From positions 1-64,000 of IMG/VR virus record IMGVR_UViG_3300025949_000023: a DNA stretch of 64,000 nucleotides. One strand, 5' to 3'. A program made the position numbers and the translations under genes. Position 1 is the first letter of the stretch, and each line of letters starts with the position of its first letter. The DNA comes from a virus. Of this stretch, positions 6,435-60,395 are shown in pieces. Under the pieces are notes generated by a model that was given only the letters and a program-made list of their open reading frames with translations, was not told where the DNA came from and ran no database searches.

Positions 6435-9400
6435 TTATTCTACATAAAATAACGACCCTAATAATACAAAGTCTCTTGAATTACCCGCAGCTATAGTAAG
6501 CGTATTTACGGCAGATGTATCATAAATATCATTACCGCCAGCATTTGAGTTTACAGTAAGGTTTCCACTTCCGGCATTTTTGACGGTTATTTTAAACCAC
6601 CTGCCTCTTTTGTTTGTATCTACGGCGGGTAGTGTATATGTACCCGTAGTGCCAGTAAATGCATAATCCCCTGCATAAGAAAGAGATATATTGGTTGAAG
6701 ATGTAGAAGCCACTGGCGGGTCTAATACTTCGTATCTGCCTGTACTAAAATTTATGACAGTTGGATAAAACCCAGTTACAGCACCGCTATATGCAAAGGT
6801 TGTAGCAGTTGTTATGCTGCCGCTTTGTGGGAGCGATAAGTTACCTATGATAGTTGCATTTCCACTATCAAGTATCCCGTTTCCTATTAAGGTATCATGG
6901 GCATATATACTGTGCAAACTTGCTATGTTTACATTGCTGCGCGGTGCGCCTGCATAACCAAAGCTGCCCGTGCCAGTTATAGCTAAACTGGTAGAAAAGG
7001 CCGGGGCGGCTGTACTGGCTGTATTATTCCCAAATACCGTATTAGCCGCTACCGTTGCTGCGCCTGTCCCACCGTTAGCTATGGGTAATATCCCGCTTAC
7101 GTGAGTAGTTAAGCCCACTTTCCCGTATAATGGTGCTACGCCCACACCACCGCTTATTAGCACATTGCCCGTTGCTATGTCTGCCAGTTGGTTAAATGTA
7201 CTTGTGCCATTTGCAACCAATATATCACCTGTGGCATTATTTGCGTTAGTGTATTGTGCTTGTCGCATCCAGTTTGTACCGTTGTAATATTTTATTACAT
7301 TGCTTTCCGCTGTTACCATACCTGTTATCAAATTAGAAGAGGCCACCGTGCCATTGGGGATTACAAACGAAGGTATTGTCGATGTGCCTGCTGTAAACAA
7401 TTGCGCACCTGTTAACCCTACCGCATATATGCCGCCTGTCCCGCTCATAGTTATACCGCTGCCTGCTATTGCAGGGCTAAACCTATTATTTATTAAGTTT
7501 GTTACTGTTAAAGTTTGAGGGCTTACACCTCCTGTGGTAAATGTAACCGAATTTGACATATTTGCCGTTACAGTAGTAATGGTCCCTGTGGCTGTTGTAG
7601 TATCTGTTATTGTCATTGTATTTTGGCGGTATATATTCCCATTTGTTCCTAAAGCGCCTATTACTGTACCGCCTATATTTAATCTTGCCGCAGGTGTGGT
7701 TGCGCCTAACCCAACAAAGTTTTGAACACTATCATAATTAAAGTTTGTTGTACCAGTAATGTCATTTACCCCCCTGAATACTATTGCTTTTGCGGGTATG
7801 GATGTTGTGGCTGCTGGAACTGAACCCTTAATAAAATTTCCACTTGCATCTAAGTATAGTCCATTGGCGGCTGTCCCTGTGCTTAAATTATTTGCATTAA
7901 TACCAGCAACGGCGGTTAAGTTGCCCGCTATTCGCCTTGTGCTTACATCATAAGCTCCTTGAAATGTAGAACCAGTAAAACTAAATGCCCTTTCGTCCGG
8001 GAAAGCGTTTATTGCGCTTGTGTCATAGTTAAAAACAGTTTGTACATTATTAACAGTGTCAAACACCATTGGGTTTGTACCTGTATAAGCATTTGTCCCT
8101 GATTTTGTAATAGTGTTACTCATTACAGATAGCACGTTAGATTTGCGCGCCCATACAAATCTTTGGGCATTATTAAATGTTGCGGCAACCCTATTGTAGT
8201 TTAAGGAACTTGTTACGGAGTTAAATTCAAAATTGTTATTGTGTATGCTGGTAACGTAGTTTGAACTATCTACCGTTATATTATCATCCGAATTGCGCCA
8301 AAAATTATTGCTGTAAACCTCTGTGTTTTGTGCCGTACCTCTTACTATTATACATTTGCCGTTCGTAAGGAAATTATTTACCCCTATTTTGGTAAATGTA
8401 CCTTGCACCTCTACCACGCAGCTATCAGCATACCTTGTTTCAAATTCGTTATATTGAATTATATCGCCGGGGCTGCTGGTACACCTGCTTATTACTGCTT
8501 TTTTTGAAAGGTTGTAAAAGTCATTATTAAGTATATAGTGTTGCCCCGTTCCGCCACTTATAGCTACCGAACTGTTAGTAAAATGGCACTCGTTAAAACT
8601 CCAGCTATCAGTAGTTCCGTATCCCGTAAAGCTGGTATCGCCGCCATTAAAATAAACGTTGTATATCTTCCCTAACCCAACCGTTTTTAACCCTGCTGTG
8701 CTGTTTGTGGTTTGCCTCATAAGCATAAGCCTTACGCCTGTACCGGGTCGCTGGTTGCCTAATATAGCAATGTTTTTTATATTTATCCCCTGTGAACGGT
8801 AATTAGTTACCTCACTTGCACTGGTAACAAATCCATTGGTGTTATTATAAAATATAACCCCCGTCATTATCTTGTAAATAATGCTATCAGTTGCGTTCAC
8901 AAATTGCGTGGGAAATAATGGGTTTTGCCCTTCAATCACTGTTCCGTTACCCAATATAAGACTATCGCCAACACCCCATATACCTGTATTTCGCTTAGTA
9001 AAAATTACTTTTGTATTACGCGCTGGATAAGCGTTTATGGCAAGCTGTATAGCCGCCTTATTATCTGTACCAGTACCCGTAAGCAAATCCCAATCATCTA
9101 CTGCACCAAACCATGCTACATTAAGCCCGTTAGCTTGGCTGTATTGCCTTACCCACCATTTATTAGCACCTAACCCTGTTGCTGCAAACCTTGTACCTCC
9201 ATCTGCTGTAAGAGTGCTTGAATTAACCAGCAAAAAGTTACCACCCCTTAATGTATCTGTTACATAAACACTTGTACTTGCCCCTGTATAGGCTTGCATG
9301 GCTGCGATAGATGCAAAGTTTGTTGCACCGCTAAATGCTGTTGCGGCTACTGCTTTTACTACGCTATCGGTAGTGCCTTTTACTAAAATACTATCGCTGC

Positions 9401-34050: not shown

Positions 34051-34577
34051 AGTTCGCTAAATTCTTGTTTTGTAATTGTTTTCATACAACCAGGACCTCG
34101 GCCAACATCTTCGGTTGACTTTATGGGGTATATCTGCACACCTTGTGTGGTTTCAACATAAAAAACATCAATCCCTTTATATGTTTTATAACCTTGCTGG
34201 GTCGTTTGACTAACCTGTCTTTCAAATTCAATAGTTATGCTTTCTTTTTTCAAAGGACACCAATCAGGGGTAATTGGGTTGTAGTTTTTATCGCCTTCAA
34301 TTTTTGGCTCAAATACATAAACATTGCCAATAGTGCAGCCGTCCACTACCTGTACCCTGTCGTCAAACACACTCCCGCTGCCATTAAAATAACCGGCTCT
34401 ATATTTATTATATTCCTCCTGCGTCAATTCCGGTTTGATAAAATTATCTCTCCCCACAATCCCTACATATTGCTTTATATCAACCGGTCTGTCAGGGTGA
34501 TGGCAGTAAAGTTCATATTCATCACCCGTGCCATCATATAAAGGGCAATTAACGCAACCCGTTATTGTTTTTGTCAT
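34047..34577 (-). CDS. hypothetical Cys-containing protein
   Basis: GCVNCP, YCHHP and PDWCPL motifs. Confidence 0.6.
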   Translation of the reverse strand: MTKTITGCVNCPLYDGTGDEYELYCHHPDRPVDIKQYVGIVGRDNFIKPELTQEEYNKYRAGYFNGSGSVFDDRVQVVDGCTIGNVYVFEPKIEGDKNYNPITPDWCPLKKESITIEFERQVSQTTQQGYKTYKGIDVFYVETTQGVQIYPIKSTEDVGRGPGCMKTITKQEFSEL

Positions 34578-35980
34578 AAAATACTTTTAATTACTTCTAC
34601 TATATCATAAGCCGTATGTTGAGTACAACGCGGTATTTCGTCGCCCATAAGGCACTGTACGCCGCGGGTTCCCACTTCGGAATGGTAGCAGCCCTGTTTT
34701 ACACAAAAGCCTTGTATGACGCTTAAATTATCAAAATCGCTGTACCTCAGTTCGGGTGTTACGCTCCCAAAAAAACCTATACACTTAACGCCTAAAGCTA
34801 TGGCCACCTGCAAAGGGAAACTGTCTGTACCTATAAAAATATCAGCCCCGCCAATCATGTAATTCAGCATTTCGTAGTTATGGGTGTTGATATGCGTTCC
34901 GAATTGTTTTCCTGCACCTTTTCCCACCTGCAACACCATATATCCCTTTCCGGTCAAAAACGCAAACACCTGCAGCCAGTCCCGTTGGCTCACTGCAATG
35001 TTTCGCCAGGGCATGTCCGTATCGTCAATATGTACCACCGCGTACTTGCCAAATAGTTTTGCATGCGGCGGGCAGTAGCTTGTTAGCTGGCTGTTTTTCA
35101 TTTCGCCATCTTCGATACCCGCTGCCTCGTAATAGGATTTTAAAACGGGTTGCTGCGGCTTGCTTTCGTAGGCCATATCCAAGCCTATAAACTTAACACC
35201 AGGTGCCGTAAGCAGCTCTATGCGCGTCTGCGTAATATGTTTCACGGGAAACCTATGGTGTTTAAATGGCTCCCAAAACTGTATAGGTGTATCAAGCACC
35301 GGCTGGTACCCGTCATTCCAAAGTCTTTCAAGCAGCGGCTCTGTCATTATCACATCACCGGCAGCAGCCTGCCGTGTTACTATTGCATGCGGCCTGTAAG
35401 GTTGGTGGTAGTATTGGTGAAATCCAAAAGTAGGATGCAGTGGCTCAATAAGCTCGTAAGAAAACTTCTGTGCGACTTCTACCGGAGCGAACTTATACCC
35501 CACTGTTTCAAGGTATTTACCATACAGCCGGCAAGTAATTTCATCTTCTGGATGCGTTATAGCGATATGCTGGTCAATCCTTAACCAATACATTAGCTCT
35601 TTGCTCCGCAGGCTGAAACCACCATTGCCTACTGAATTATTATCGTTGTATGGCCACGGGGCGCCAATATAATCATACTGTAAAAATTCATCACTCCATT
35701 GCTTTCCGTCAAGCACGTAGCCGTCATGCTGAATAATAAGCACATGCTCGGTAAACACCCACTTACAAAGTTCTTTTACAACAAAGCGTGAATAATCCTC
35801 TTTGCTTTTTAACGCATCAATCTTCCCTATATATACACCAGGAATTGGCAATTCAATATCTGTAAAAAAAATAGTCTTGGCAGGCTGTATTTGCTCCAAA
35901 GAGCGCCTTATTGCCTTCATAGCACCTGCATGGTGTTTAGTGTCTATACACACCATTGTTACTGTTGGGAGATTAATCAT
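34574..35980 (-). CDS. two-domain glycosyltransferase: DUF5672-like GT-A domain plus GT9-like domain
   Basis: QHDG, YDYIGAPW, VGNGGFSLRS, PED, FGFH; then AAGDVIM and FIGTDSFP..VA; likely start MINLP at 35980. Confidence 0.8.
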   Translation of the reverse strand: MINLPTVTMVCIDTKHHAGAMKAIRRSLEQIQPAKTIFFTDIELPIPGVYIGKIDALKSKEDYSRFVVKELCKWVFTEHVLIIQHDGYVLDGKQWSDEFLQYDYIGAPWPYNDNNSVGNGGFSLRSKELMYWLRIDQHIAITHPEDEITCRLYGKYLETVGYKFAPVEVAQKFSYELIEPLHPTFGFHQYYHQPYRPHAIVTRQAAAGDVIMTEPLLERLWNDGYQPVLDTPIQFWEPFKHHRFPVKHITQTRIELLTAPGVKFIGLDMAYESKPQQPVLKSYYEAAGIEDGEMKNSQLTSYCPPHAKLFGKYAVVHIDDTDMPWRNIAVSQRDWLQVFAFLTGKGYMVLQVGKGAGKQFGTHINTHNYEMLNYMIGGADIFIGTDSFPLQVAIALGVKCIGFFGSVTPELRYSDFDNLSVIQGFCVKQGCYHSEVGTRGVQCLMGDEIPRCTQHTAYDIVEVIKSIL

Positions 35981-36188
35981 TGGATTCCTCCAGTATTGTT
36001 GAAGGTTCTTTATCCATGCTTTTAGCGATAGCCTCAACCGCTTTCCAGGTAGTAAGAGAAACAGATGAACGCATGATGGCAGACTTAACGCCACCTTCTC
36101 CTACGCCCATAAATGGTGCTATCTGTTTCTGCAAATCAGGATTTTTATGCAGATAGTTTAAAGCCTCAATTGTTAAATGTGTTGCCAT
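35973..36188 (-). CDS. small HTH-like DNA-binding protein
   Basis: IAPFMGVGEGGVKSAI helix-turn-helix pattern. Confidence 0.55.
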   Translation of the reverse strand: MATHLTIEALNYLHKNPDLQKQIAPFMGVGEGGVKSAIMRSSVSLTTWKAVEAIAKSMDKEPSTILEESND

Positions 36189-36592: not shown

Positions 36593-37036
36593 ATGAAGAA
36601 AAAAGACAAACCACCAGTTGAGAATACAGAAGTTCAAGATGCTGTATTTGAGCAACCGACCGACCCTAAGACGTATGACGAATGCACTACAGATGCACAG
36701 CGACTAAGTTTCTTAAATGCTGTTGTGGGCGCTCAAATGGCTGAGATTTCAGAGCTAAAGCAGATTAAGCAGGACTACGAGAATGATGCCATCTACAGCA
36801 TGTACTTCGCCACCAACCGAAAAGCAAACCACTGGGCCAGGATGATTAACGGACTGGATATTTCTATACCCGCGCAGGCAAAACAGTATATGGATATGCT
36901 TAAAAACCAGGATGTGATTGCCGCCTCACTGAATAAAATGCGTAGGGAGTACTTGAAGCTGGATGAATCTGAATTGGCAAAGGCCGAGGAGAAAGGTGTT
37001 CCGCTTATTGAGCAACAGGGTAAGAAACAAAAATGA
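36593..37036 (+). CDS. hypothetical helical protein
   Basis: ATG at 36593 downstream of a -7 box; coiled-coil character. Confidence 0.6.
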   Translation: MKKKDKPPVENTEVQDAVFEQPTDPKTYDECTTDAQRLSFLNAVVGAQMAEISELKQIKQDYENDAIYSMYFATNRKANHWARMINGLDISIPAQAKQYMDMLKNQDVIAASLNKMRREYLKLDESELAKAEEKGVPLIEQQGKKQK

Positions 37037-37866
37037 TAAAGATGGCATACGTTTATAGACATATTCGATTAGATACAGGGAAACCGTTTTATATTGGCGT
37101 TGGTAAGGATGAAAATGGTAAATACTCTCGTGCGCATAGCCATCAAAACAGAAACAATCACTGGTATGGTGTTGTAAAAAAACACGGCTACGAAGTTGAA
37201 GTTTTAATTGATGGGCTAACTTATGAGCAAGCTATTGAGAAAGAATTTGAATTTATTGCTTTGTACAAAAGGGTGTTGGATGGGGGTACTTTAGTAAACC
37301 TGTCTCTTGGAGGCGGTGGCACTCTTGGGGTATATCCTTCTGACGAGACAAGACTTAAGCAAAGTTTAGCTAAAAAAGGAAGGCCATCGCCATTGAAAGG
37401 TATTCCTGCTACTCCTGAAAAAGTTCAGCATTTAAAACAGTTCTGTTTTAAGAAAGGTCAAGAAAGTTGGGTAAAAGGTAAAAAAATGCCACCAGGAATG
37501 GCTGAAAAGTGCAGTAAAATAAAAAAAGCTTTTTACGCAGATAAACCGGGCCCGCGTACAGGCAAAAAAAATTCAGAAGAATCCTTAAGAAAGATGAGGG
37601 AGACTAAAGCTAAAAACCCCCAAAAGGCTTGGAATAAAGGTAAACGACCTTCTAATGAAACCATAGCTAAAATAATGGCTACAAGGAATTTTAAAGTTGT
37701 TTACCAGCTTGATTTAAATAGGAAGCTTATTAAAGAGTGGCCTTCAGTATCAGAAGCAGCAAGAGATATGCACATTCGAAAAGGGCATATCTCTAACTGT
37801 TGCCTTGGTAGATTAAATACCTACAAAGGATTTATTTGGAGCTATTCTAAGCCTGAAACAGGTTAG
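37033..37866 (+). CDS. GIY-YIG homing endonuclease with NUMOD3/NUMOD1 domains
   Basis: YVYRH..FYIGVG, ETRLKQSLAKKG, AWNKGK, VYQLDL..IKEWPS..EAAR..ISNCC..YKGFIW. Confidence 0.85.
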   Translation: MIKMAYVYRHIRLDTGKPFYIGVGKDENGKYSRAHSHQNRNNHWYGVVKKHGYEVEVLIDGLTYEQAIEKEFEFIALYKRVLDGGTLVNLSLGGGGTLGVYPSDETRLKQSLAKKGRPSPLKGIPATPEKVQHLKQFCFKKGQESWVKGKKMPPGMAEKCSKIKKAFYADKPGPRTGKKNSEESLRKMRETKAKNPQKAWNKGKRPSNETIAKIMATRNFKVVYQLDLNRKLIKEWPSVSEAARDMHIRKGHISNCCLGRLNTYKGFIWSYSKPETG

Positions 37867-38087
37867 GCATTAGCCAGTGTTCGTATTGCGCTCACTGTCT
37901 CAGAACAACCATAAATAAACCCGTTTGCCAGTGTTATTTGGCTATACAGGTGGTAAATATTATTGCCGAGGTAAGGGCCAACATTATTAATTTCAGCAGG
38001 TGAAATAAGCAGATATTTAGGCGTTTGTGGTACGTTGCCGGGGTTGCCATTTATTTCATATACTGACACCTGGAATAACTGAGCCAT
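37863..38087 (-). CDS. small conserved phage protein
   Basis: ORF with its own TATATTTG box at 38114-38107; ends ETVSAIRTLANA. Confidence 0.6.
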   Translation of the reverse strand: MAQLFQVSVYEINGNPGNVPQTPKYLLISPAEINNVGPYLGNNIYHLYSQITLANGFIYGCSETVSAIRTLANA

Positions 38088-38121
38088 AGTTTTAAATTTT
38101 AATTCTCAAATATAAAATAAA

Positions 38122-38961
38122 ATGGAACAAACGGACGAAAAAATAATTACAGCGCATCATAGTATGGCATGCGGAGATTTAATTGCGTGTATGGCCGGTA
38201 TGAAAGCAGTCTACGAAAGGACGGGGCAAAAATGGTTAATCTACCAAACGATTGGGTTGCCTGCCATGTATTATGAAGGCTGCATTTACGGCACACATAG
38301 TGAAACCGGTGTACCGGTAACCATGAATGAAACCCTGTTTAGGATGCTTCGCCCGCTGATTACAGCGCAGGAATACATCCACGATTTCAGAATCTACCAG
38401 CTTGAAAAGGTGGATGTGGATTTTGACAAGATGTTTACCCTGGGCAAGTGTAATAAACCTTTTGGTATAATACAGCGCTGGCCGTTCTATGCGTTTCACG
38501 AATTGGCTATTGACTGCGATTTAAGCAAGCCATGGATAAGCGTGCCTGAATTAGAAGACGGTATTCTTAAAAGTAATTTAAATGAGTGTATTCTTTTAAA
38601 CAAAACAGAACGCTATTCTCATGGACTTAGATACACTTTTTTAGGTGACTCTCCGTACAGAGGAAGTGTAATTTTCTTGGGAACTAAAACCGAATTGCAA
38701 AGGGTTATTAGCGAACATGCCATTACTCCCGGATACTTAGAATTAGAGAATTTCCTACAGGCTGCTCAATATCTTTCCTGCTGTAAGGTATTTGTTGGCT
38801 CACAAAGCTTTCTTTACAATCTCAGTGAGGCTATGAAGATACCGCGCGTGGTAGAAGTGTTTCCCCCGGCGCCTAATTGTATACCCATTGGAAAAGATGG
38901 GTATGACGCTATGTGGCAGGAAGGGCTGGAATGTTATGTAAAACATTTGTTTGAGAAATAA
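38122..38961 (+). CDS. GT9-like (GT-B) glycosyltransferase
   Basis: GDLIACM, FLGTKTE, CKVFVGSQSFLYNLSEAMKIPRVVE. Confidence 0.7.
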   Translation: MEQTDEKIITAHHSMACGDLIACMAGMKAVYERTGQKWLIYQTIGLPAMYYEGCIYGTHSETGVPVTMNETLFRMLRPLITAQEYIHDFRIYQLEKVDVDFDKMFTLGKCNKPFGIIQRWPFYAFHELAIDCDLSKPWISVPELEDGILKSNLNECILLNKTERYSHGLRYTFLGDSPYRGSVIFLGTKTELQRVISEHAITPGYLELENFLQAAQYLSCCKVFVGSQSFLYNLSEAMKIPRVVEVFPPAPNCIPIGKDGYDAMWQEGLECYVKHLFEK

Positions 38962-38982
38962 TATATATTTGCCTCAACAAAA

Positions 38983-39081
38983 GGTGAAAGTTGATATTGG
39001 AGCTATTAACTTGCACTCCGGGTTAAAATAAAAAAATGGTTTGCAAGTACGCGGCTCCAACGCGGAAAGCAAGCCTTTTTT
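38983..39081 (+). promoter_or_regulatory. kissing-loop/terminator leader of the replication initiator
   Basis: Two hairpins with complementary loops TTGGAGC and GCTCCAA; the second ends in a T-run; TATATTTG box at 38964-38971. Confidence 0.65.
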
Positions 39082-39086
39082 GTTAT

Positions 39087-39758
39087 ATGGCAAAACCAAA
39101 ACAGCACCACTTTGATATTAATACAGCTATTGATATTGGATTGCATGAGGCCATAATACTTAATAATTTTGAGTACTGGATTGACTTAAACAGGTCAAAC
39201 AAGAAGCATTTTTATGACGGCAGGTACTGGACTTTTAATAGCGTCCGGGCTCTTTCTGAACTTTTCCCTTACTTGTCTTACAAGCAAATTAGGACGGCCA
39301 TAGACAAACTTTTATCACTGGGTATTTTGGTAAAAGGAAACTTTAATAAAGTCGGGTACGATAGAACAACATGGTATTCAATAACCGACGTTCCCATTTG
39401 CCCCACAGGGCAAATGGATTTGTCCTATAAGGCAAATGGATTTGCCCAAGAGGGCGAACCTATACCAGATAATAACTCAGATAATTTTACAGATAATGAA
39501 AAAGAAAATAGTTATCTTATTAAAAATAATTCATATTTAATATTTAAAGAATGGATTAGAGTAAATACACCAAGAGTATTATCATTAGAAGAACAGGTAA
39601 CAGAAAAAGAGTATAAAACCTTGATTAAAAATTATTCTTCTAATGATATTAAAGTCGCACTTGCTTATATGCACAATCAGAAGGATTTAAATAAAAAATA
39701 CAACTCTGTATATACAAGCCTTAACTTTTTACTTAAAAACAAAAAACAAACAACATGA
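39087..39758 (+). CDS. phage replication initiator (N-terminal winged helix)
   Basis: HHFDINTA..GLHEAIIL, DGRYWTFNS..LFPYLS, GNFNK..DRTTWY. Confidence 0.8.
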   Translation: MAKPKQHHFDINTAIDIGLHEAIILNNFEYWIDLNRSNKKHFYDGRYWTFNSVRALSELFPYLSYKQIRTAIDKLLSLGILVKGNFNKVGYDRTTWYSITDVPICPTGQMDLSYKANGFAQEGEPIPDNNSDNFTDNEKENSYLIKNNSYLIFKEWIRVNTPRVLSLEEQVTEKEYKTLIKNYSSNDIKVALAYMHNQKDLNKKYNSVYTSLNFLLKNKKQTT

Positions 39759-40363
39759 AGAAAACGCCGACTTTGGAGTGCTTTTTTGACGGTGCCTGTT
39801 ACCCGAAAAATCCCTACGGAACGATGGGGATGGGTGCGTGCATCAATGAAATGGGGATTGAGTTATGGAAATGCAGCCATACAATCCCGGCAGGTAAGGC
39901 CAACAGTAACAATGTAGCTGAGTACCTGGCGCTGGAATACATCCTTGATGAACTGATGAAGCAGGCTGTAAAAATGGAAACTATCGTTATTAAAGGCGAC
40001 AGTAAACTTGTAATTGAGCAAATGAGTGGCAAATACAAGATTAAAAGTGGTATGTATGTCCCCGTAGCGATTAGGTGTAAAAAGAAAGTTATGCACTTAA
40101 GTTCACTTAATGATATAAAATTTCAATGGATTCCGCGTGAGCAAAATAGCTATTGCGATAGCCTAAGTGGCGGTGATAATTTTAATAAACCAAACAACAA
40201 GGTATTAAGGGGTAGTTTTGAGGTCGTAGATGGAAAACTATCGTTTAATTGCACAACTACAAACATACCATTTAATGAAGTTCTTTTTGGATTGACCAAA
40301 CTTAGAGACGAACTTAACAGGCAGATTGACAATCAACAAAATTGTCCTTACCATGGAAAGTAA
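39755..40363 (+). CDS. ribonuclease HI family protein
   Basis: FFDGA, SNNVAEYLAL, GDSKLVIEQM, WIPREQN..D. Confidence 0.9.
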   Translation: MKKTPTLECFFDGACYPKNPYGTMGMGACINEMGIELWKCSHTIPAGKANSNNVAEYLALEYILDELMKQAVKMETIVIKGDSKLVIEQMSGKYKIKSGMYVPVAIRCKKKVMHLSSLNDIKFQWIPREQNSYCDSLSGGDNFNKPNNKVLRGSFEVVDGKLSFNCTTTNIPFNEVLFGLTKLRDELNRQIDNQQNCPYHGK

Positions 40364-40874
40364 AGCCCTGCAAAAAGCCAAAGAAGCAATCGCCCGGCGC
40401 AATGCTCTAAAGGCAAAGCCTGTTAAAAAGGAGAGAAGCTATAAAAGAAGCGTTTTAAAGCCCTCAGAAACGGTTTTGTATGCTCGTAAAGAAGATAAGA
40501 TTAAAAGCCTTACAAGCCAGCTTACAAAGGCAAATAACACCATCCAGCATATATCATCGCTGTTTGATGATAGAAAAAATGTAGTACCGGTGTTTATGGC
40601 CCTGCGCACGGTGGATGATTTTCTTTGCGCTAAATACAATATAAAAGTTTCGGATATTTACGTCCTCAGCCAGGCTGATTTGGAAGATATACCTTTTACA
40701 ACGGACGATTATGATGTATATGCTCTTAACAGGCTGATTAAAGCAGGGTTTGTAAAATCACGGATAACCAAAGGAAACAAAACTTATTTCACTATGCCGG
40801 CAGCAAAACTGTTCTTAAATGAACTTACCAAAGAGGTAAAGAAGGTGATGATGCCGCTGCTTAAAATACAGTAA
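40353..40874 (+). CDS. hypothetical protein, possible C-terminal winged helix
   Basis: Basic N-terminus; LNRLIKAGFV..KTYFT. Confidence 0.5.
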   Translation: MESKALQKAKEAIARRNALKAKPVKKERSYKRSVLKPSETVLYARKEDKIKSLTSQLTKANNTIQHISSLFDDRKNVVPVFMALRTVDDFLCAKYNIKVSDIYVLSQADLEDIPFTTDDYDVYALNRLIKAGFVKSRITKGNKTYFTMPAAKLFLNELTKEVKKVMMPLLKIQ

Positions 40875-41723
40875 ATGAACTTACCAAAATTAATTATATC
40901 ATTTAGTGGCGGTGAAACATCCGCATTTATGACCCAGTGGCTTTTAAAAAACAAATCAAATGAGTATGATTTTACAGTTGTCTTTGCTAACACTGGTTGC
41001 GAAAATGAGGAAACTTTAGAGTTTGTAAATGAATGTGATAAATATTTCGGGTTGAATGTTGTTTGGGTTGAAGCTATTACTACCCCTATAAAAGGCATAG
41101 GTGTAGTTTCAAAAATTGTTTCTTTTGAAACAGCAAGTAGGGATGGAGAACCATTTGAGTTAATGATACAAAAATTAGGAATACCAAATCGGACTGCTCC
41201 GCGTTGTAGTGAAGAATTAAAAAAATTCCCTATTAGGCATTATGCTCGAACGGTTGGATTGAAAAAATACTACACTGCTATTGGTATAAGAATAGACGAG
41301 GTTGACAGAGTAAGCGAAAACTATAAATCTGAAAAAATTATATACCCGTTGATTAGCATGGTTCCAATAAATAAAGATGGTATTAATTCTTTTTGGAGCA
41401 GTATGCCTTTTAGGCTTAGATTAAAACCATATCAAGGAAATTGTAAATGGTGTTGGAAAAAATCTTTTAAAAAACTAATAACCATAGCTAAAGAAACTCC
41501 ATCTGCCTTTGACTTCCCTGTTAGAATGGAAGAAACTTATGGGAATATCATTCCAACGCAGCGAAAAGATAGTAAAAACATTAAGTTGCCTCTTACTTTT
41601 TTTAGAGGCAACCTTAGTGCGAAAGATATTCTTTCAATGGCAAATAGACCGGAACTACAGGGAGTTCTTGATTTTAACCAAGAAACCCCAAATGGGTGTT
41701 CGGAAAGCTGTGAGGCTTTTTAA
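40875..41723 (+). CDS. PAPS-reductase-family (PP-loop) protein
   Basis: ISFSGGETS, FANTGCE, CSEELK, GIRIDE, GNCKWCWKK, CSESCE. Confidence 0.85.
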   Translation: MNLPKLIISFSGGETSAFMTQWLLKNKSNEYDFTVVFANTGCENEETLEFVNECDKYFGLNVVWVEAITTPIKGIGVVSKIVSFETASRDGEPFELMIQKLGIPNRTAPRCSEELKKFPIRHYARTVGLKKYYTAIGIRIDEVDRVSENYKSEKIIYPLISMVPINKDGINSFWSSMPFRLRLKPYQGNCKWCWKKSFKKLITIAKETPSAFDFPVRMEETYGNIIPTQRKDSKNIKLPLTFFRGNLSAKDILSMANRPELQGVLDFNQETPNGCSESCEAF

Positions 41724-41729
41724 TTTATT

Positions 41730-43943
41730 TTATGCCTGCCGCTGTATGTAATCATAATCTTCCACCCGCCGTGCCCTGCCGGTAGCCTTGTTAATCGTGT
41801 ATTCCTCCACCACCTGCATGCGCTTTACTTCTTTCTTTTTGTGTTTGAACTCGCCCATATAGTTTAACAGCCACATCATAAATCCTATACTCACGTCACT
41901 TTTTGTACGGTCGGCGGGGTCAAACGTCTCTAAATCTTCCAGTATCTGTAAGAACTTAATCTTCCACCAGTGCTTCTGGATGTAGATAGCCGCCAATTCA
42001 ATCTGCCTGGCAAATACAAACGGGTCGGACGAGCTGGCGCCATACTCCACGGCCTTGTCGCTTTCCCGCAGTTTACGCATAGCATCAATCGCCGCATCCG
42101 GCTTTTTACCCAACATTGGTAAACAGTTCACATCCATGAAATTGGGCATGGTATTATTGAAGTACTTGATATACTCCTGCGTAGCATCCCTTTCCACGGT
42201 TACCGTGCAGCCATACCACATACTGGCCATTAAAATCTCTTTCCAAAACAATTCCGTTAACCTAGGCCTTCCTATGTACAACGCCACTGGGTCGCCGCCT
42301 TCTTCATGCGCCTCCATGCTGGGGTCAAGTTTGCTGCCTATTACAATTACACCTTTTGAGCCTAATTCCTTCGTTTTATCAAACCTAAAGGTATCAGCAC
42401 CCCCTGCATAGATAGCCGTTCCCATTGGCCACGGCCTGCCTCTTTCATCTATCCGGTAGTTATTCGGTGTTTTGGGAAAGTCTTTTATCAGCCAGTTACC
42501 GTTTATATCGTCGCAGAACTCAATTACAACCTGTTTCTTGCCTTCATTATTGAAGTGTGATACCATAAGCCTCCCACGCCTTAAATACAGCTCTTTATCC
42601 CGCAGCATGCGTTTTACAACTTCAATCTGAGACTTTATATTTTCAAGGTTAAAGGGGCTCATGCTGTCGCCAAAGTCAAACATATCCTGTTCCCTTACAG
42701 GGTACTTGCGCCTTTCCTCTGCCTTATCATCTTCGTCTGTTAGCAGGGCCAATTTATGTTCAAGGTATTTTTTAGCTCCCAGCCTAAGGTATTCGTCCGG
42801 TACCCGTTCTTCATGGTTGGTTACTTCCTGGTTTTTCTGTATCAGGTAGGCCAGTGTTTCTTCGTCCGGTGGGTCAATTACACTCTCACCGTACTTGCCT
42901 ATAAAACCAAACAGCCCGTCATACGCCGGCTTGAAAAACTTAACCGCCTGTTGAGGTAGCCTGTTTAGCGGGTATTCGTATTGATTGGCGGCATCCCATA
43001 TCCTTTTAAATGCGTTACCACCCTTAGTGGGTGGGTTTACCGTTGACGGTATATAAGCAAACCCTTTCCTTACCGCACCTACTACCAGGGTGTCTTTTAC
43101 GATACGCCAGTACTTTGCAAACGATACTTTTAACCATTTACCTGCTTCATCTATGAGTATAAAGCTCCATCTGCCGGAGTCAAATGCGTTTAGCGTGGTG
43201 TCCCTTTTTACTATAATAGAGTTAAGGCCTTCACGGGCGGTGTTCACCTGGCCCTGTGATTGTTTTTTCTTTCCTTCTTTACGCAGGCTGATTTCATTCT
43301 TAGGGTCGGTACCACCTGCAGTACGTGGCCGCAGGTAGATAGGCAGTGATTTAAACGCATACACCAGCATGTTCTCAAACATATCGTCCACGTCGTCACC
43401 GGTCTTTGATATGTTACCGCAGCGTTTATTACCGCCCCAGCCAGCGGCATTGGTGGCTATCCACATCTCTATACACGTACCATGGCTGGTAGCTCCTTCA
43501 CGTCGCGCCTTGCCCCTGATGATAGCCGCTATATACGGGTTACTATAACACGAAATAAAGAAGATAAAGAAAAGCCTGTCACATTCCCTATACTCAGGTT
43601 TGCTGCCATCCTCCAGCGTCCAGTAGGTTAACCAGTAGTAGTAAACTCCGGGGATATACGTTGGAACGCCTTTAATCATCACCCAAACCCCATGCTGGCA
43701 CTTATGCAGCTCCTCCAGTACAAATTTCTTTTGCTCAGGCGTGTATACAGGGTCACCGTCAAAGTCAAACCTAATGTTGTCCATGAAGTCGGGTATCTCC
43801 TGCCTGCGGTAGTATTGTTCTTTTACTGGCCGCTTATTGCCTTCAATCTTTGTTATCGCTGGTTGGTCGGGAATGGAGCAGGGGATGCCCTGTATTATTT
43901 GTTCGGTAGGCATGTTCAATATTTTTATTTGTTCATGTAACAT
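41730..43943 (-). CDS. terL: terminase large subunit
   Basis: KARREGAT Walker A variant, ILIDEAGKW Walker B, PSTVN, GGADTF nuclease domain. Confidence 0.9.
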   Translation of the reverse strand: MLHEQIKILNMPTEQIIQGIPCSIPDQPAITKIEGNKRPVKEQYYRRQEIPDFMDNIRFDFDGDPVYTPEQKKFVLEELHKCQHGVWVMIKGVPTYIPGVYYYWLTYWTLEDGSKPEYRECDRLFFIFFISCYSNPYIAAIIRGKARREGATSHGTCIEMWIATNAAGWGGNKRCGNISKTGDDVDDMFENMLVYAFKSLPIYLRPRTAGGTDPKNEISLRKEGKKKQSQGQVNTAREGLNSIIVKRDTTLNAFDSGRWSFILIDEAGKWLKVSFAKYWRIVKDTLVVGAVRKGFAYIPSTVNPPTKGGNAFKRIWDAANQYEYPLNRLPQQAVKFFKPAYDGLFGFIGKYGESVIDPPDEETLAYLIQKNQEVTNHEERVPDEYLRLGAKKYLEHKLALLTDEDDKAEERRKYPVREQDMFDFGDSMSPFNLENIKSQIEVVKRMLRDKELYLRRGRLMVSHFNNEGKKQVVIEFCDDINGNWLIKDFPKTPNNYRIDERGRPWPMGTAIYAGGADTFRFDKTKELGSKGVIVIGSKLDPSMEAHEEGGDPVALYIGRPRLTELFWKEILMASMWYGCTVTVERDATQEYIKYFNNTMPNFMDVNCLPMLGKKPDAAIDAMRKLRESDKAVEYGASSSDPFVFARQIELAAIYIQKHWWKIKFLQILEDLETFDPADRTKSDVSIGFMMWLLNYMGEFKHKKKEVKRMQVVEEYTINKATGRARRVEDYDYIQRQA

Positions 43944-48812: not shown

Positions 48813-49016
48813 TTATATTAAAAGTTTGTTCAAAGTTTCCCTATGTGAATTTTTTATCCTTTCAAGCTGCATTTTATTATTATGCAACTCTTTCTTCATT
48901 CTGTTATATTCGGACAACAATTCGTGGTGCTTCTGGTAAAACTCAAACAGCTCCTTCTCCCGTATAGAGATAATGTTTTCAACTGCTATTTGAGCTTTAC
49001 TCTTTTCCATTGTCAT
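48813..49016 (-). CDS. small coiled-coil protein
   Basis: Overlaps the portal stop codon. Confidence 0.5.
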   Translation of the reverse strand: MTMEKSKAQIAVENIISIREKELFEFYQKHHELLSEYNRMKKELHNNKMQLERIKNSHRETLNKLLI

Positions 49017-51559
49017 TCCTGTTGTTGTGGCTGCGCCCCCTGTTGCTCCTGCTGCCCAGCCTGTGCCATCTGCTGCTTCTCCTGCACTACCGTTCCAAAT
49101 ATCATATCCCTCATTGCCTTTAACTCCGGTGTAAGCGGCGTGCCGGTTTCTTCCGACTTTTTGGTAATCTCCTTAATCATTGATACAAGTTCCTTATACT
49201 CGTTACTATTTCCTTTAGCCATTTCAATCGCCACCTTCGCCATGGCCTGGGCCTGTATTTCCCTTATTTTACCTTCGGTACTTATCTCTACGCTGGCCTG
49301 CTGAATCTTCTGATTCATTACCATTTGATTTTTCTGCATGGCCTTCGCCTCTTTCTTCGCCCTCTTTTCCATTTTTTCCAAATACAGTATCGCTGTTTTT
49401 GGATTAGGTATGTATTCCAGCCGGGCAGCGGTGGCCATGCTAATCAACTTACTTTCCAGTGCATTTTCAATGAGCATCATTAAGCGCTCTTTCATTTCGC
49501 GCTTATTCACCATATCAATATTCACATCAAAAGAACTATCAATTATTGAGCCATCGCCGGCAGCGGGGTCTCCGTACTCACCGGTCATTTTCTTATACTC
49601 CTCAGCACTCAATACCATATCGTCCCAAAGAGAATAACAACACTTGGTTGCGTTTTGCTCCATGAGCATTATAAAGAAATCATATATATACTCAAAAGAT
49701 AATCCACCGGCAACCACCGCCTGGTTGGTTGCTGTAGCGCTTTTCTTTGCCGCGGTAGGCTGCGCCATTATCTCCGGCGTAACTCCCCACTCTTGGTTAG
49801 CTATTGCGATAAAAAAGTTGTAGCAGCTTATCAACACATTTATCTGCGCAGCATTGCCTCCGTACGTATCGTTTTTATACGGGTCCTGTTTTGGGGCGCC
49901 GCTTATGCCGCTGTCGTCCTCGCTGCTCCAATATCGCACGCCTGTTTGCCTTTTAAGGCGCACTAAATCCATTGGGAGCAATACACCACCAGTACCTATA
50001 TCAAGGCCGTGCTGCAGCCCTGAAATGTCAAATGAGGTATTGTCCGGCTCCATCAGCGCAATCATCTGCTGTATTTTCAACAGGCAACCTATTGCCTGCC
50101 TGGTAGGTGGTATAGCCCTTTCCAAAAGGGAAGGCACGTACCATCCGTTGGCATTAGGGTAAACGATAGAATAGTTTGAAAACACATCCACGCCGTTCTG
50201 AAAGGCGCGGAGCTGGTTGGGCTCTACACCCCACTGCAGCAACACATCGGTACCCACTACCCAAACACCTGAGTAAATATTGTATCGGCCCACGCTTATT
50301 ACTTCTTTATCCTCGCCTACGTTTTTAGGCACTCCTTTCTTTGCATCTATGCTTGCTGGGCCTTTGACGTACCATTCCTGGTCGTAAACCTTCACCTCGC
50401 AGTCAAATACCATAAATGAATAGTCGTCATACGGCCTGTTGAAATCGTACATATACGTGTCAATCCAGTCAAGTGGCTTGGCTTGCACTAATCCTTTCTG
50501 AGTTACCTGACTTATTTGCCACCACTGTTTTTCTGTAACATTAGAAAACGCCCGGCGCCCTTCCGATACTTTCATCGGGTAAGCTTCGCCTATAATAGTT
50601 ACATCCGACCCATCCGCGTTCCTGAAAATATTGTAAACGGTATTCTCAGGAATACATCGGCGCACCCGAGTACGGTTGGCCAGCGTAGAACTCTCGCCGC
50701 CAAAGACTGTACCCGGTGCTTTTTCCTTTTTAGTCACCATACAGTTCTTTACAATGCAATCAAACAGCAACTGGCGCTTTAAATTGTCATACCCGCTATT
50801 CTGAAAGATTTTCCATATTTCATCCTCCATAAAGCTTTCCTCCGGTATGCGGTACTCAATTTTGTAGTACACATCCAGCTCGTCCTCGTCCTCCGGCGTA
50901 AACCCTGGCTCTAAATTCTGCAGGCCGGAAGCCGCCTGCATAGCCATAATCTTTTTGTTGTTCTCCATCCGGTAGCGGGCAATAATCTTCTCCCTTTCTT
51001 TAAACCTTACACTACCAATGTCCGTGGCCTTAACATCGGGTTTTTCCTCCCTGTCGCATAGTATCTGTAGTATTTTATTAACGTAGGTAGGTATAATCTG
51101 CGCAATGCGGTAGTCTAAATTTAACCAGGTCTTGTTTCCCTGTACGCCCATAAGGTTGTAGAAATCCTCACCCCCTTTGTTTCCCAGCGCCCATTGTTCG
51201 TTCTCCCACCATCGGTCGGTACGCACTCCGTAGAAGCCGCTGTTGCCTACATTTATGTAGCTCCACATTTCCTTCATCACCTGTAACCCGTAGGCGGGTT
51301 GCCGCTTTTTTGAAACCTGGTCGAACTGCAGGCGCAGCACCGCGTCAAGGTTTGAAGTTTTAATCTCACTGGTAAGTGCCGTTTCCTGGATGGAAAAATC
51401 CCCCACTAAATCAGTAGTGCCGGCACCAGTGCCTGCTACTTGCGGCAGGTTGGTAGAAACATCCTCTTTTTTTATGCCGATACCTTTTTCAATCATCTGC
51501 AAAGCAGTTTCCATTTCTTTTGGGGGGGGAGTGTTTTGGCCCATACCTTGTTGATACAT
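49013..51559 (-). CDS. portal protein
   Basis: WLNLDY..IIPTYV, YSGVWVVGT, QTGVRYW motifs; Q-rich tail; upstream of scaffold and MCP. Confidence 0.85.
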   Translation of the reverse strand: MYQQGMGQNTPPPKEMETALQMIEKGIGIKKEDVSTNLPQVAGTGAGTTDLVGDFSIQETALTSEIKTSNLDAVLRLQFDQVSKKRQPAYGLQVMKEMWSYINVGNSGFYGVRTDRWWENEQWALGNKGGEDFYNLMGVQGNKTWLNLDYRIAQIIPTYVNKILQILCDREEKPDVKATDIGSVRFKEREKIIARYRMENNKKIMAMQAASGLQNLEPGFTPEDEDELDVYYKIEYRIPEESFMEDEIWKIFQNSGYDNLKRQLLFDCIVKNCMVTKKEKAPGTVFGGESSTLANRTRVRRCIPENTVYNIFRNADGSDVTIIGEAYPMKVSEGRRAFSNVTEKQWWQISQVTQKGLVQAKPLDWIDTYMYDFNRPYDDYSFMVFDCEVKVYDQEWYVKGPASIDAKKGVPKNVGEDKEVISVGRYNIYSGVWVVGTDVLLQWGVEPNQLRAFQNGVDVFSNYSIVYPNANGWYVPSLLERAIPPTRQAIGCLLKIQQMIALMEPDNTSFDISGLQHGLDIGTGGVLLPMDLVRLKRQTGVRYWSSEDDSGISGAPKQDPYKNDTYGGNAAQINVLISCYNFFIAIANQEWGVTPEIMAQPTAAKKSATATNQAVVAGGLSFEYIYDFFIMLMEQNATKCCYSLWDDMVLSAEEYKKMTGEYGDPAAGDGSIIDSSFDVNIDMVNKREMKERLMMLIENALESKLISMATAARLEYIPNPKTAILYLEKMEKRAKKEAKAMQKNQMVMNQKIQQASVEISTEGKIREIQAQAMAKVAIEMAKGNSNEYKELVSMIKEITKKSEETGTPLTPELKAMRDMIFGTVVQEKQQMAQAGQQEQQGAQPQQQE

Positions 51560-60210: not shown

Positions 60211-60395
60211 AAAACGCTTTAACCGAAACTTTAAGCCCGTCCTATGTGATGGGCTTTTTTATGCCTGCATCCTATGGCCGGGTGCCTCCGGCGCAATCGG
60301 TTTTTGAAATCCCGCTACGCCAAGCGGGAATAGAAAAACCCCACATGAATATGCGGGGTTTACTCCAAATGAAGAACTGCTATATGAGACAAAGT

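Follow-up and report, generated by a model that had tools for sequence, protein, structure and literature searches.

A structured leader RNA with complementary hairpin loops in front of replication genes in phages of Flavobacteria and their relatives

The window analyzed here, which spans the first 64 kb of a phage record in IMG/VR (IMGVR_UViG_3300025949_000023; 72 kb, rated complete by CheckV), carries a gene for a replication initiator of 223 amino acids (aa) (39087-39758, +) that matches phrog_11233 (E 2e-38) and also DnaD-like and O-like families. We investigated the DNA located directly in front of this gene (38964-39086), which displays a promoter-like box, two hairpins with complementary loops and a T tract. 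The box, TATATTTG (38964-38971, +), is a putative leader promoter of the Bacteroidota type (-7 box, TAnnTTTG) situated at -123 from the ATG at 39087, and the 116-nucleotide (nt) leader is unusually long for this phage. Hairpin 1 (H1) consists of nine pairs, one of them G-U (38988-38996 / 39004-39012, +), which could be extended by pairing GGUG (38983-38986) with CACU (39014-39017), and it exposes a 7-nt loop (L1), TTGGAGC (38997-39003, +). An A-rich linker (39018-39037, +) separates it from the terminator-like, two-part hairpin 2 (H2; 39038-39075, +), in which an outer stem with one G-U pair (39038-39044 / 39069-39075, +) and an inner CGCG/CGCG stem (39050-39053 / 39061-39064, +) flank an internal loop composed of AAGTA on the 5' side (39045-39049, +) and GAAA on the 3' side (39065-39068, +). 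The apical loop of H2 (L2), GCTCCAA (39054-39060, +), is the exact reverse complement of L1, and the L1:L2 duplex has an energy of -9.7 kcal/mol. A run of six T (T6; 39076-39081, +) at the 3' foot of H2 ends 5 nt before the ATG at 39087. H2 and T6 together have the form of an intrinsic (Rho-independent) terminator, a G+C-rich hairpin with a U tract immediately 3', which a simple terminator consensus scan missed because of the internal loop of H2. The ordinary terminators of this phage are short perfect G+C stems, from which the two-part H2 differs. No promoter-like box was found in the 5 nt between T6 and the ATG, and no Shine-Dalgarno sequence precedes this ATG. The initiator gene is followed by an RNase H-like gene (39755-40363, +), an unknown open reading frame (ORF; 40326-40874, +) and a PAPS-reductase-like gene (40875-41723, +). 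A preliminary description of this DNA had listed the box, both hairpins, the complementary loops, T6 and the ATG, and had placed them before an operon of initiator, RNase H and PAPS-family genes; all of these elements were recovered at the positions given above and the gene context was confirmed.

The sequence TAnnTTTG has 68 matches in the window, about 10 of them in intergenic DNA, which represents 5.8% of the window, and most of these intergenic ones lie 18-35 nt before a start codon. Shine-Dalgarno sequences are missing from the window genes inspected, the initiator included. The intergenic enrichment of TAnnTTTG and the genes devoid of Shine-Dalgarno sequences indicate a Bacteroidota host and make TATATTTG credible as a promoter.

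Because the window phage has no close relatives, distant homologues of its initiator were examined for the same layout. Loci L155 and L158 were chosen solely by a TAnnTTTG box at -122/-123 together with either the absence of a Shine-Dalgarno-like word or the presence of a T run just before the ATG. Both exhibit the architecture of the window, with the loops GTAGAGG/CCTCTAC in L155 and GTGGCGG/CCGCCAC in L158, and in L172, a relative of L155, one U-A pair of H2 is replaced by C-G through compensatory change. A blastn search with the L158 leader matched the cultured Flavobacterium phages elemoE/F and Olleya phage Harreka_1, whose loops are GTGGAGG/CCTCCAC and GTGGTGG/CCACCAC, respectively; the centre pair of the loop-loop helix in L158, elemoE/F and Harreka_1 is C-G, A-U or U-A. 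In Harreka_1 the leader lies in a gap without annotation. A covariance model built from the window sequence alone (R1) gave no useful alignment of relatives. Model R2 was built from the alignment termed A7, with no loop-loop term and with the window left out, and matched 39/50 of the fetched loci L200-L249 and 11/29 of L171-L199, as well as L002, L098, L155, L158, L285 and L284. Reverse-strand model matches (for instance L179-, L188-, L217-, L218-, L290-, L331-, L333- and L334-), secondary matches in L323, L325 and L336, the 5'-truncated matches L178 and L188 and the same-record duplicates L311, L317, L326, L335, L340 and L341 were dropped before counting. The compiled candidates comprised 75 sequences, 55 of them distinct, and 54 of these were kept as family members, originating from other phage contigs and from cultured phages; L303 was rejected, with a complement of merely 5 nt. 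Cultured carriers are the Flavobacterium phages elemoE/F, hattifnatt, hemulen and filifjonk and Olleya phage Harreka_1. In 151 Bacteroidia genomes (the class of a Bacteroidales metagenome-assembled genome) R2 had 0 matches, a weak negative with 22 candidates scored per genome.

The complementarity between the two loops is a property of the whole family. A perfect Watson-Crick complement between the apical loop of H2 and the 5' part of the element extends over at least 6 nt in 54/55 distinct candidates and over at least 7 nt in 50/55, to be compared with 7 nt in 5/2,714 cross-class loop pairs and in 47/11,000 shuffles. The family uses 22 distinct loop words, TTGGAGC of the window being one of them. 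When IMG/VR was scanned with a pattern in which the scaffold bases were fixed and six of the seven L1 positions and all seven L2 positions were left free, 17 loci were returned and their loops were perfectly complementary in every case. In alignment A7 (18 sequences), 98% of the cells are paired versus 86% in shuffles, a value reached by 0/500 shuffles; H1 and the outer stem of H2 covary, all six H1 pairs show double changes, and every cell of the loop-loop helix is paired (100%), the central position being occupied by U-A, A-U and C-G. In alignment A8 (22 sequences from a second lineage), six of the seven loop-loop pairs show two-sided changes and no pair shows a one-sided change, and the unpaired cells all come from two rows misregistered by MAFFT, each of which has a complementary pair of its own; the H1 stem is paired in 87.9% of cells. 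The covariation of both loops upstream of homologous initiators, for which the preliminary description had called, is thus strongly present (17/17 in the scan, two-sided at 6/7 pairs in A8). The cross-lineage MAFFT alignments A2 and A4 were structurally inconsistent and were excluded from the pair counts. The stems are rich in G-U pairs on the plus strand, for instance in 17/20 scored rows (two gapped) at one A8 pair. Read from the opposite strand these would be A-C mismatches, so it is the gene-strand transcript that is under selection. We found no support for diversifying selection among the loops, the loop-loop columns of A8 showing 0.39 bits versus 0.36 in the rest of the motif. We are highly confident that this family represents a genuine, conserved structured RNA whose loop-loop contact is under selection, and chance is very unlikely as an explanation for the family as a whole.

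The remaining parts of the element are conserved as well. The exact TAnnTTTG box is found at the same place in 49/54 members and in a relaxed form in the other five. H2 is terminator-like in 54/54 members, all of which have at least 5 T, and 51 of them at least 6, in the 8-nt stretch after H2, and A-rich linkers are visible in alignments of other members too. A GAAA-like 3' internal loop is present in 47/54 members, and the sequence of the H2 internal loop is conserved across lineages, as xAGUA or xAUUA opposite GAAA and as GGAU opposite UGAA in A8. The AGUA-like strand opposite GAAA presumably resembles loop-E/sarcin-ricin and tandem G-A motifs, and the internal loop could be a contact site for a protein or a tertiary structure. 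L1 and L2 are single within 600 nt on either side in 51/54 members, with a sporadic extra copy in three. The first genes behind the motif code for replication initiators of several unrelated PHROG families and for primase/helicases, and in most of 25 representative members no more than about 35 nt lie between the end of the model match and the first ORF. The leader and the initiator can be separated by one or two small ORFs (43-86 aa), as in L171/L173 (1116-1248), in elemoF (L321) and in Harreka_1 (L322). In L323, L284, L285 and the second copy of L332, the first gene after the leader appears endonuclease-like from its N-terminus, judged by eye, as if inserted; we take it to be of the HNH or NUMOD4 type. 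The 42-kb phage contig L332 carries two copies of the motif (412-538, -, and 7498-7609, -) before different genes and with different loop words (GTGGTGG and GTGGACG), and the initiators of L217 and L240 are 91% identical, yet stand behind different loop words.

No relevant family of Rfam 15 was found at window positions 38000-40000 (E ≤10) or in five member loci (E ≤1), where the matches consisted of one tRNA and chance-level ones and nothing else, and no description of the motif was found in the published literature, searched without full texts. The main text of the Harreka paper (PMC8776804), as distinct from its supplements, uses neither 'terminator' nor 'non-coding'. We read the family as new: it is a previously undescribed structured leader RNA of phages of Flavobacteria and their relatives.

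The window copy has all the architectural traits of the family, namely a TAnnTTTG box, H1, an A-rich linker, H2 with a T-rich tract and a replication gene, and its internal loop, AAGTA/GAAA, fits the purine-rich family pattern xAKUA/GAAA. Its promoter-proximal sequence resembles those of L285 and L284. Model R2 and a further model, R3, built from 41 sequences with the window again left out, both rank 38961-39097 (+) first in the 64-kb window searched on both strands (128 kb), with rough E-values of 0.21 for R2 (19.3 bits) and 0.12 for R3 (25.0 bits). On the whole 72-kb record R3 found no match and missed the window locus itself, so this search is uninformative. From these sequence features the window copy is treated here as a divergent member of the family. 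The sequence TTGATATTGGA occurs twice in this region, in H1/L1 (38991-39001) and again 43 nt into the initiator gene (39130-39140), and TTGATATT occurs three times near the leader (also at 39112-39119); these repeats could be due to chance (D-I-G codons) or be initiator-binding repeats.

In the database the initiator (P0001) is 240 aa long, its start being placed at an in-frame ATG within the linker (39036), and H2 would then fall inside the coding region. Since nearly all of the 39 aligned homologues start one residue before a motif equivalent to QHHFD, which corresponds to the ATG at 39087, the 240-aa form was probably called too long, starting 17 codons early. By this alignment the ATG at 39087 is likely the true start, and the one at 39036 is probably not. 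An ATG is present between the promoter box and H2 in merely 27/54 family members. The window leader also contains a 15-codon ORF beginning with GTG (38984-39031), of which no counterpart was seen by eye in elemo-type leaders, and neither an aptamer nor a conserved leader peptide was found for the leader.

Folding energies at the window locus amount to -4.6 kcal/mol for H1, -10.5 kcal/mol for H1 with the GGUG/CACU extension and -15.5 kcal/mol for H2. The 132-nt leader region has a z-score of -3.65, and 0/200 shuffles folded as stably. When the 66 nt upstream were shuffled, a complement of at least 7 nt to the H2 apical loop appeared in 63/20,000 cases; the loop 7-mer is not enriched in the window (8 matches versus 7.9 expected). 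The loop complementarity belongs to a longer, interrupted 19-nt inverted repeat (38997-39015 with 39042-39060), so that a nested long-range fold with L1 and L2 paired is nearly isoenergetic with H1 plus H2. In truncated window transcripts the nested fold has the minimum energy as long as the 3' arm of H2 is missing and is then replaced by H1 and H2, and the truncated transcripts of L155, L172 and L158 pass likewise through a long-range L1:L2 fold. A second complementary segment in the window (ACTTGCA/TGCAAGT) would supply a proper antiterminator.

In our view, with a probability of roughly 0.6, positions 38964-39086 constitute the promoter and 5' leader of a replication operon, encoding a new conserved leader RNA that attenuates read-through. 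Transcription would start just after the TAnnTTTG box, and the RNA would first fold the promoter-proximal H1 and then, past the A-rich linker, the two-part H2 with its U tract, a putative intrinsic terminator located a few nt before the start codon. H1 would pair through its 7-nt loop with the 7-nt apical loop of H2, either in a kissing complex of two folded hairpins or in a long-range helix that exists transiently during the synthesis of H2. The L1:L2 contact is the feature under strongest selection, and it may set or modulate the share of polymerases that stop at H2 rather than reading into the initiator and later genes. Stopping at H2 would release a leader RNA of about 100 nt, and the downstream genes (39755-41723, +) would depend on read-through. 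An attenuator role of the loop-loop contact is most likely; the start site, termination at H2 and read-through are putative.

Several observations weigh against this reading. R2 and R3 align its H2 correctly and its H1 wrongly, and its match alone is not significant. The -33 element is weak in the window, where TTTG occurs at 38946 and 38950 with too short a spacing; it is well placed in L155, L158 and L172. The window initiator forms a singleton cluster at 90% identity, with a best relative at 59% identity over 62% of the query, no IMG/VR relatives were found for the terminase and the upstream 279-aa protein, and the loops of the window have no close relative for comparison. In a blastn search of 38000-41800 against cultured phages the PAPS-reductase gene matched and nothing else. 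Most distant initiator homologues have no leader, the layout being present in 4/186 distinct upstream regions at first look, and in six cultured Bacteroidota-phage regions (five Bacteroides phages and Flavobacterium phage elemoF) the upstream ORF abuts or nearly abuts the initiator; in elemoF the leader sits further upstream, before a small ORF. No clear counterpart of ACTTGCA/TGCAAGT was seen in L285 or in the L184 lineage, compared by eye and not across the whole set; these share the L1:L2 segment alone, and a classical antiterminator is therefore unsupported beyond the window copy. The window DNA occurs in a single listed sequencing run, a DNA run from a rhizosphere metagenome that is possibly its source, and in no listed RNA run. 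Finally, three other junctions of hairpin, T tract and ATG exist in this phage (29931-29905, -; 43980-43941, -; and about 60233-60263, +), one of the three ATGs being the start of the terminase. All three have a short G+C hairpin with the ATG within a few bases, no room for a promoter and no H1 partner. A terminator right before a gene is therefore ordinary here, and this phage seems to use terminator read-through as a general means of adjusting gene dosage.

These junctions also speak for an alternative in which H2 is a mere terminator of the 279-aa gene, H1 is incidental and the loop complementarity is fortuitous. The weak match of the window to the family models (E 0.12-0.21) and the presence of a complement of at least 7 nt in 0.3% of shuffles could be taken in its favour, but it is hardly tenable in view of the 22 complementary words found across 54 distinct sequences, against 0.2-0.4% in controls, and of a window locus that is the top model match in 128 kb of strands with its box at -123 as in L155/L158. 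Alternatively, the two 7-bp words might act at the DNA level, as inverted initiator or repressor sites flanking an AT-rich unwinding region in an origin or operator. Perfect Watson-Crick covariation without G-U in the loop-loop helix would also be expected of inverted protein sites, the spacer between the words is A/T-rich, the initiator gene adjoins the element and the TTGATATT (three) and TTGATATTGGA (two) copies lie near the window leader. However, the words always lie in the loops of hairpins, and the stems of these covary through G-U pairs on a single strand, which is an RNA signature; the distance between the starts of the two words ranges from 48 to 66 nt and shows no helical phasing. 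Moreover, one scaffold precedes non-homologous initiators, the 91%-identical initiators stand behind different words, and the element is bounded like a transcript, by a promoter box upstream and a T tract downstream, all of which makes a DNA-level role quite improbable. A translational output, in which H2 would occlude an unstructured A/U-rich landing region and have its stability adjusted by the L1:L2 contact, is somewhat less remote albeit still improbable. Bacteroidota do not rely on Shine-Dalgarno pairing and their start sites need unstructured A-rich leaders. Such an output would suit an H2 that ends 5-30 nt before the start codon, the window ATG that lies 5 nt after T6 without a Shine-Dalgarno sequence, and the short distance to the first ORF in most of the 25 representatives. 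Nevertheless, 54/54 members conserve a G+C-rich stem foot with a T tract behind it, a terminator signature that occlusion would not need, the start codon lies at varying distances, and some members have an inserted endonuclease as the first gene.

The alternative that we consider the least unlikely, while still doubting it, is a small RNA acting in trans, alone or beside a cis role: the leader released at H2 would pair with nascent leaders of the same class and thereby provide a brake or trigger on the replication genes that depends on dosage or time, the words being specificity classes comparable to those of plasmid incompatibility or P1/P7 heteroimmunity. It would account for 22 loop words on otherwise similar scaffolds, for loop columns in A8 that vary as much as the rest despite requiring two substitutions per change and that display no one-sided intermediates, for the two copies with different words in L332 and for the nearly identical initiators of L217 and L240 behind different words. 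Conversely, variability in the loop columns does not exceed that elsewhere in the motif, a free leader could simply pair its own two loops with each other, and the two-copy case is one contig. There is precedent in the part of PMC4825925 that deals with these RNAs: IsrK acts on its own read-through mRNA, and in P4, pairing of complementary sequences of the same transcript (CI RNA) ends transcription before the replication genes. The table of PMC8776804 gives 0 integrases for Harreka, so a role in lysogenic immunity is unlikely there.

The proposed attenuator can be compared with several known systems. In pT181 and pIP501/pAMbeta1, the rep leader forms a 5' hairpin with a kissing loop and a terminator before the rep start, the output being rep dosage. 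The present leader is alike in its 5' hairpin kissing loop and its terminator just before the start codon of a replication initiator, and unlike in that the partner loop is on the same RNA. As regards an antisense promoter for the leader, no minus-strand TAnnTTTG was found between 38114 and 40267, and one minus-strand sigma-70-like match (38988-38960) is at chance level; a pre-emptor helix over the terminator arm, of the pT181 type, is not evident beyond the window copy in the few members inspected by eye. Fully complementary 7-nt loops are the recognition step of ColE1 RNA I/RNA II and R1 CopA/CopT, where the loop words set specificity. There the complementarity is automatic because the RNAs come from opposite strands, whereas both loops of the leader lie on one strand and their complementarity is kept by compensatory change. 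The pRNA of the phi29 family has two mutually complementary loops that covary between phages and pair between molecules to form a ring on the portal. It is thus also one phage RNA with two complementary covarying loops, but it is not a gene leader and has no terminator hairpin carrying a loop. Ordinary attenuators and riboswitch platforms similarly place a G+C-rich stem and a U tract between the promoter and the first gene; in contrast, the conserved partner of the upstream element in the leader is the loop of the terminator and not its arm. The preliminary description had invoked the controls of P4 and P1. Like the leader, P4 CI RNA (seqA/seqC), P1/P7 c4 and IsrK of Gifsy-1 have short same-strand complements upstream of replication or early genes, and the complementary words differ between the heteroimmune relatives P1 and P7. 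This comparison fits as an analogy and fails as a statement of family membership, the leader having no Rfam C4 match and two sites instead of three. It further differs from C4/P4 CI in that the target word lies in the apical loop of the terminator itself, in its Bacteroidota hosts and in having an integrase-less carrier. P4 and IsrK, in the part of PMC4825925 concerned, yield two RNAs from one promoter, a short one that is terminated or processed and a longer one made by read-through.

The leader is located inside a block of plus-strand genes (about 36.5-41.7 kb) with minus-strand structural and packaging genes on both flanks. The terminase (41730-43943) lies in the minus-strand block beside it and the portal (49013-51559) likewise on the minus strand, while a 506-aa protein (34574-36094, -) with a DUF5672 and a weak glycosyltransferase-9 match stands at the end of the minus-strand structural block. 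Directly upstream of the leader, the 279-aa ORF (38122-38961, +), whose stop codon is at 38959-38961, matches nothing in Pfam or PHROG, and a search of IMG/VR yielded no relative. A homing endonuclease gene (phrog_314, NUMOD1/NUMOD3 domains; 37033-37866, +) is found in the replication block two genes 5' of the leader. The plus-strand block also contains a minus-strand ORF of 74 aa (37863-38087) with its own TATATTTG box 20 nt upstream (38114-38107, -), which overlaps the start of the 279-aa gene.

The leader adds an RNA class with unusually clear loop-loop (tertiary) covariation to a phylum in which little is known of regulation by RNA, and its carrier phages matter in marine and soil carbon turnover. 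The motif marks the starts of replication operons in uncultured Bacteroidota phage contigs, providing in the window a promoter, a leader and a corrected start at 39087, and as cultured phage-host pairs carry it, it is directly testable. We further propose, very tentatively, that the leader could be a self-addressed sense RNA device that controls copy number or timing without antisense transcription. Terminated leaders would then accumulate with genome copy number and time and, by kissing nascent leaders of the same class through these two loops in competition with the intramolecular contact, would alter read-through into the replication genes. Should the loops work in trans, the family would be a natural source of orthogonal RNA-RNA pairs linked to a terminator, and if the leader is such a self-addressed device, the at least 22 loop words would be orthogonal classes that prevent cross-talk between co-infecting phages or between two leaders in one genome.

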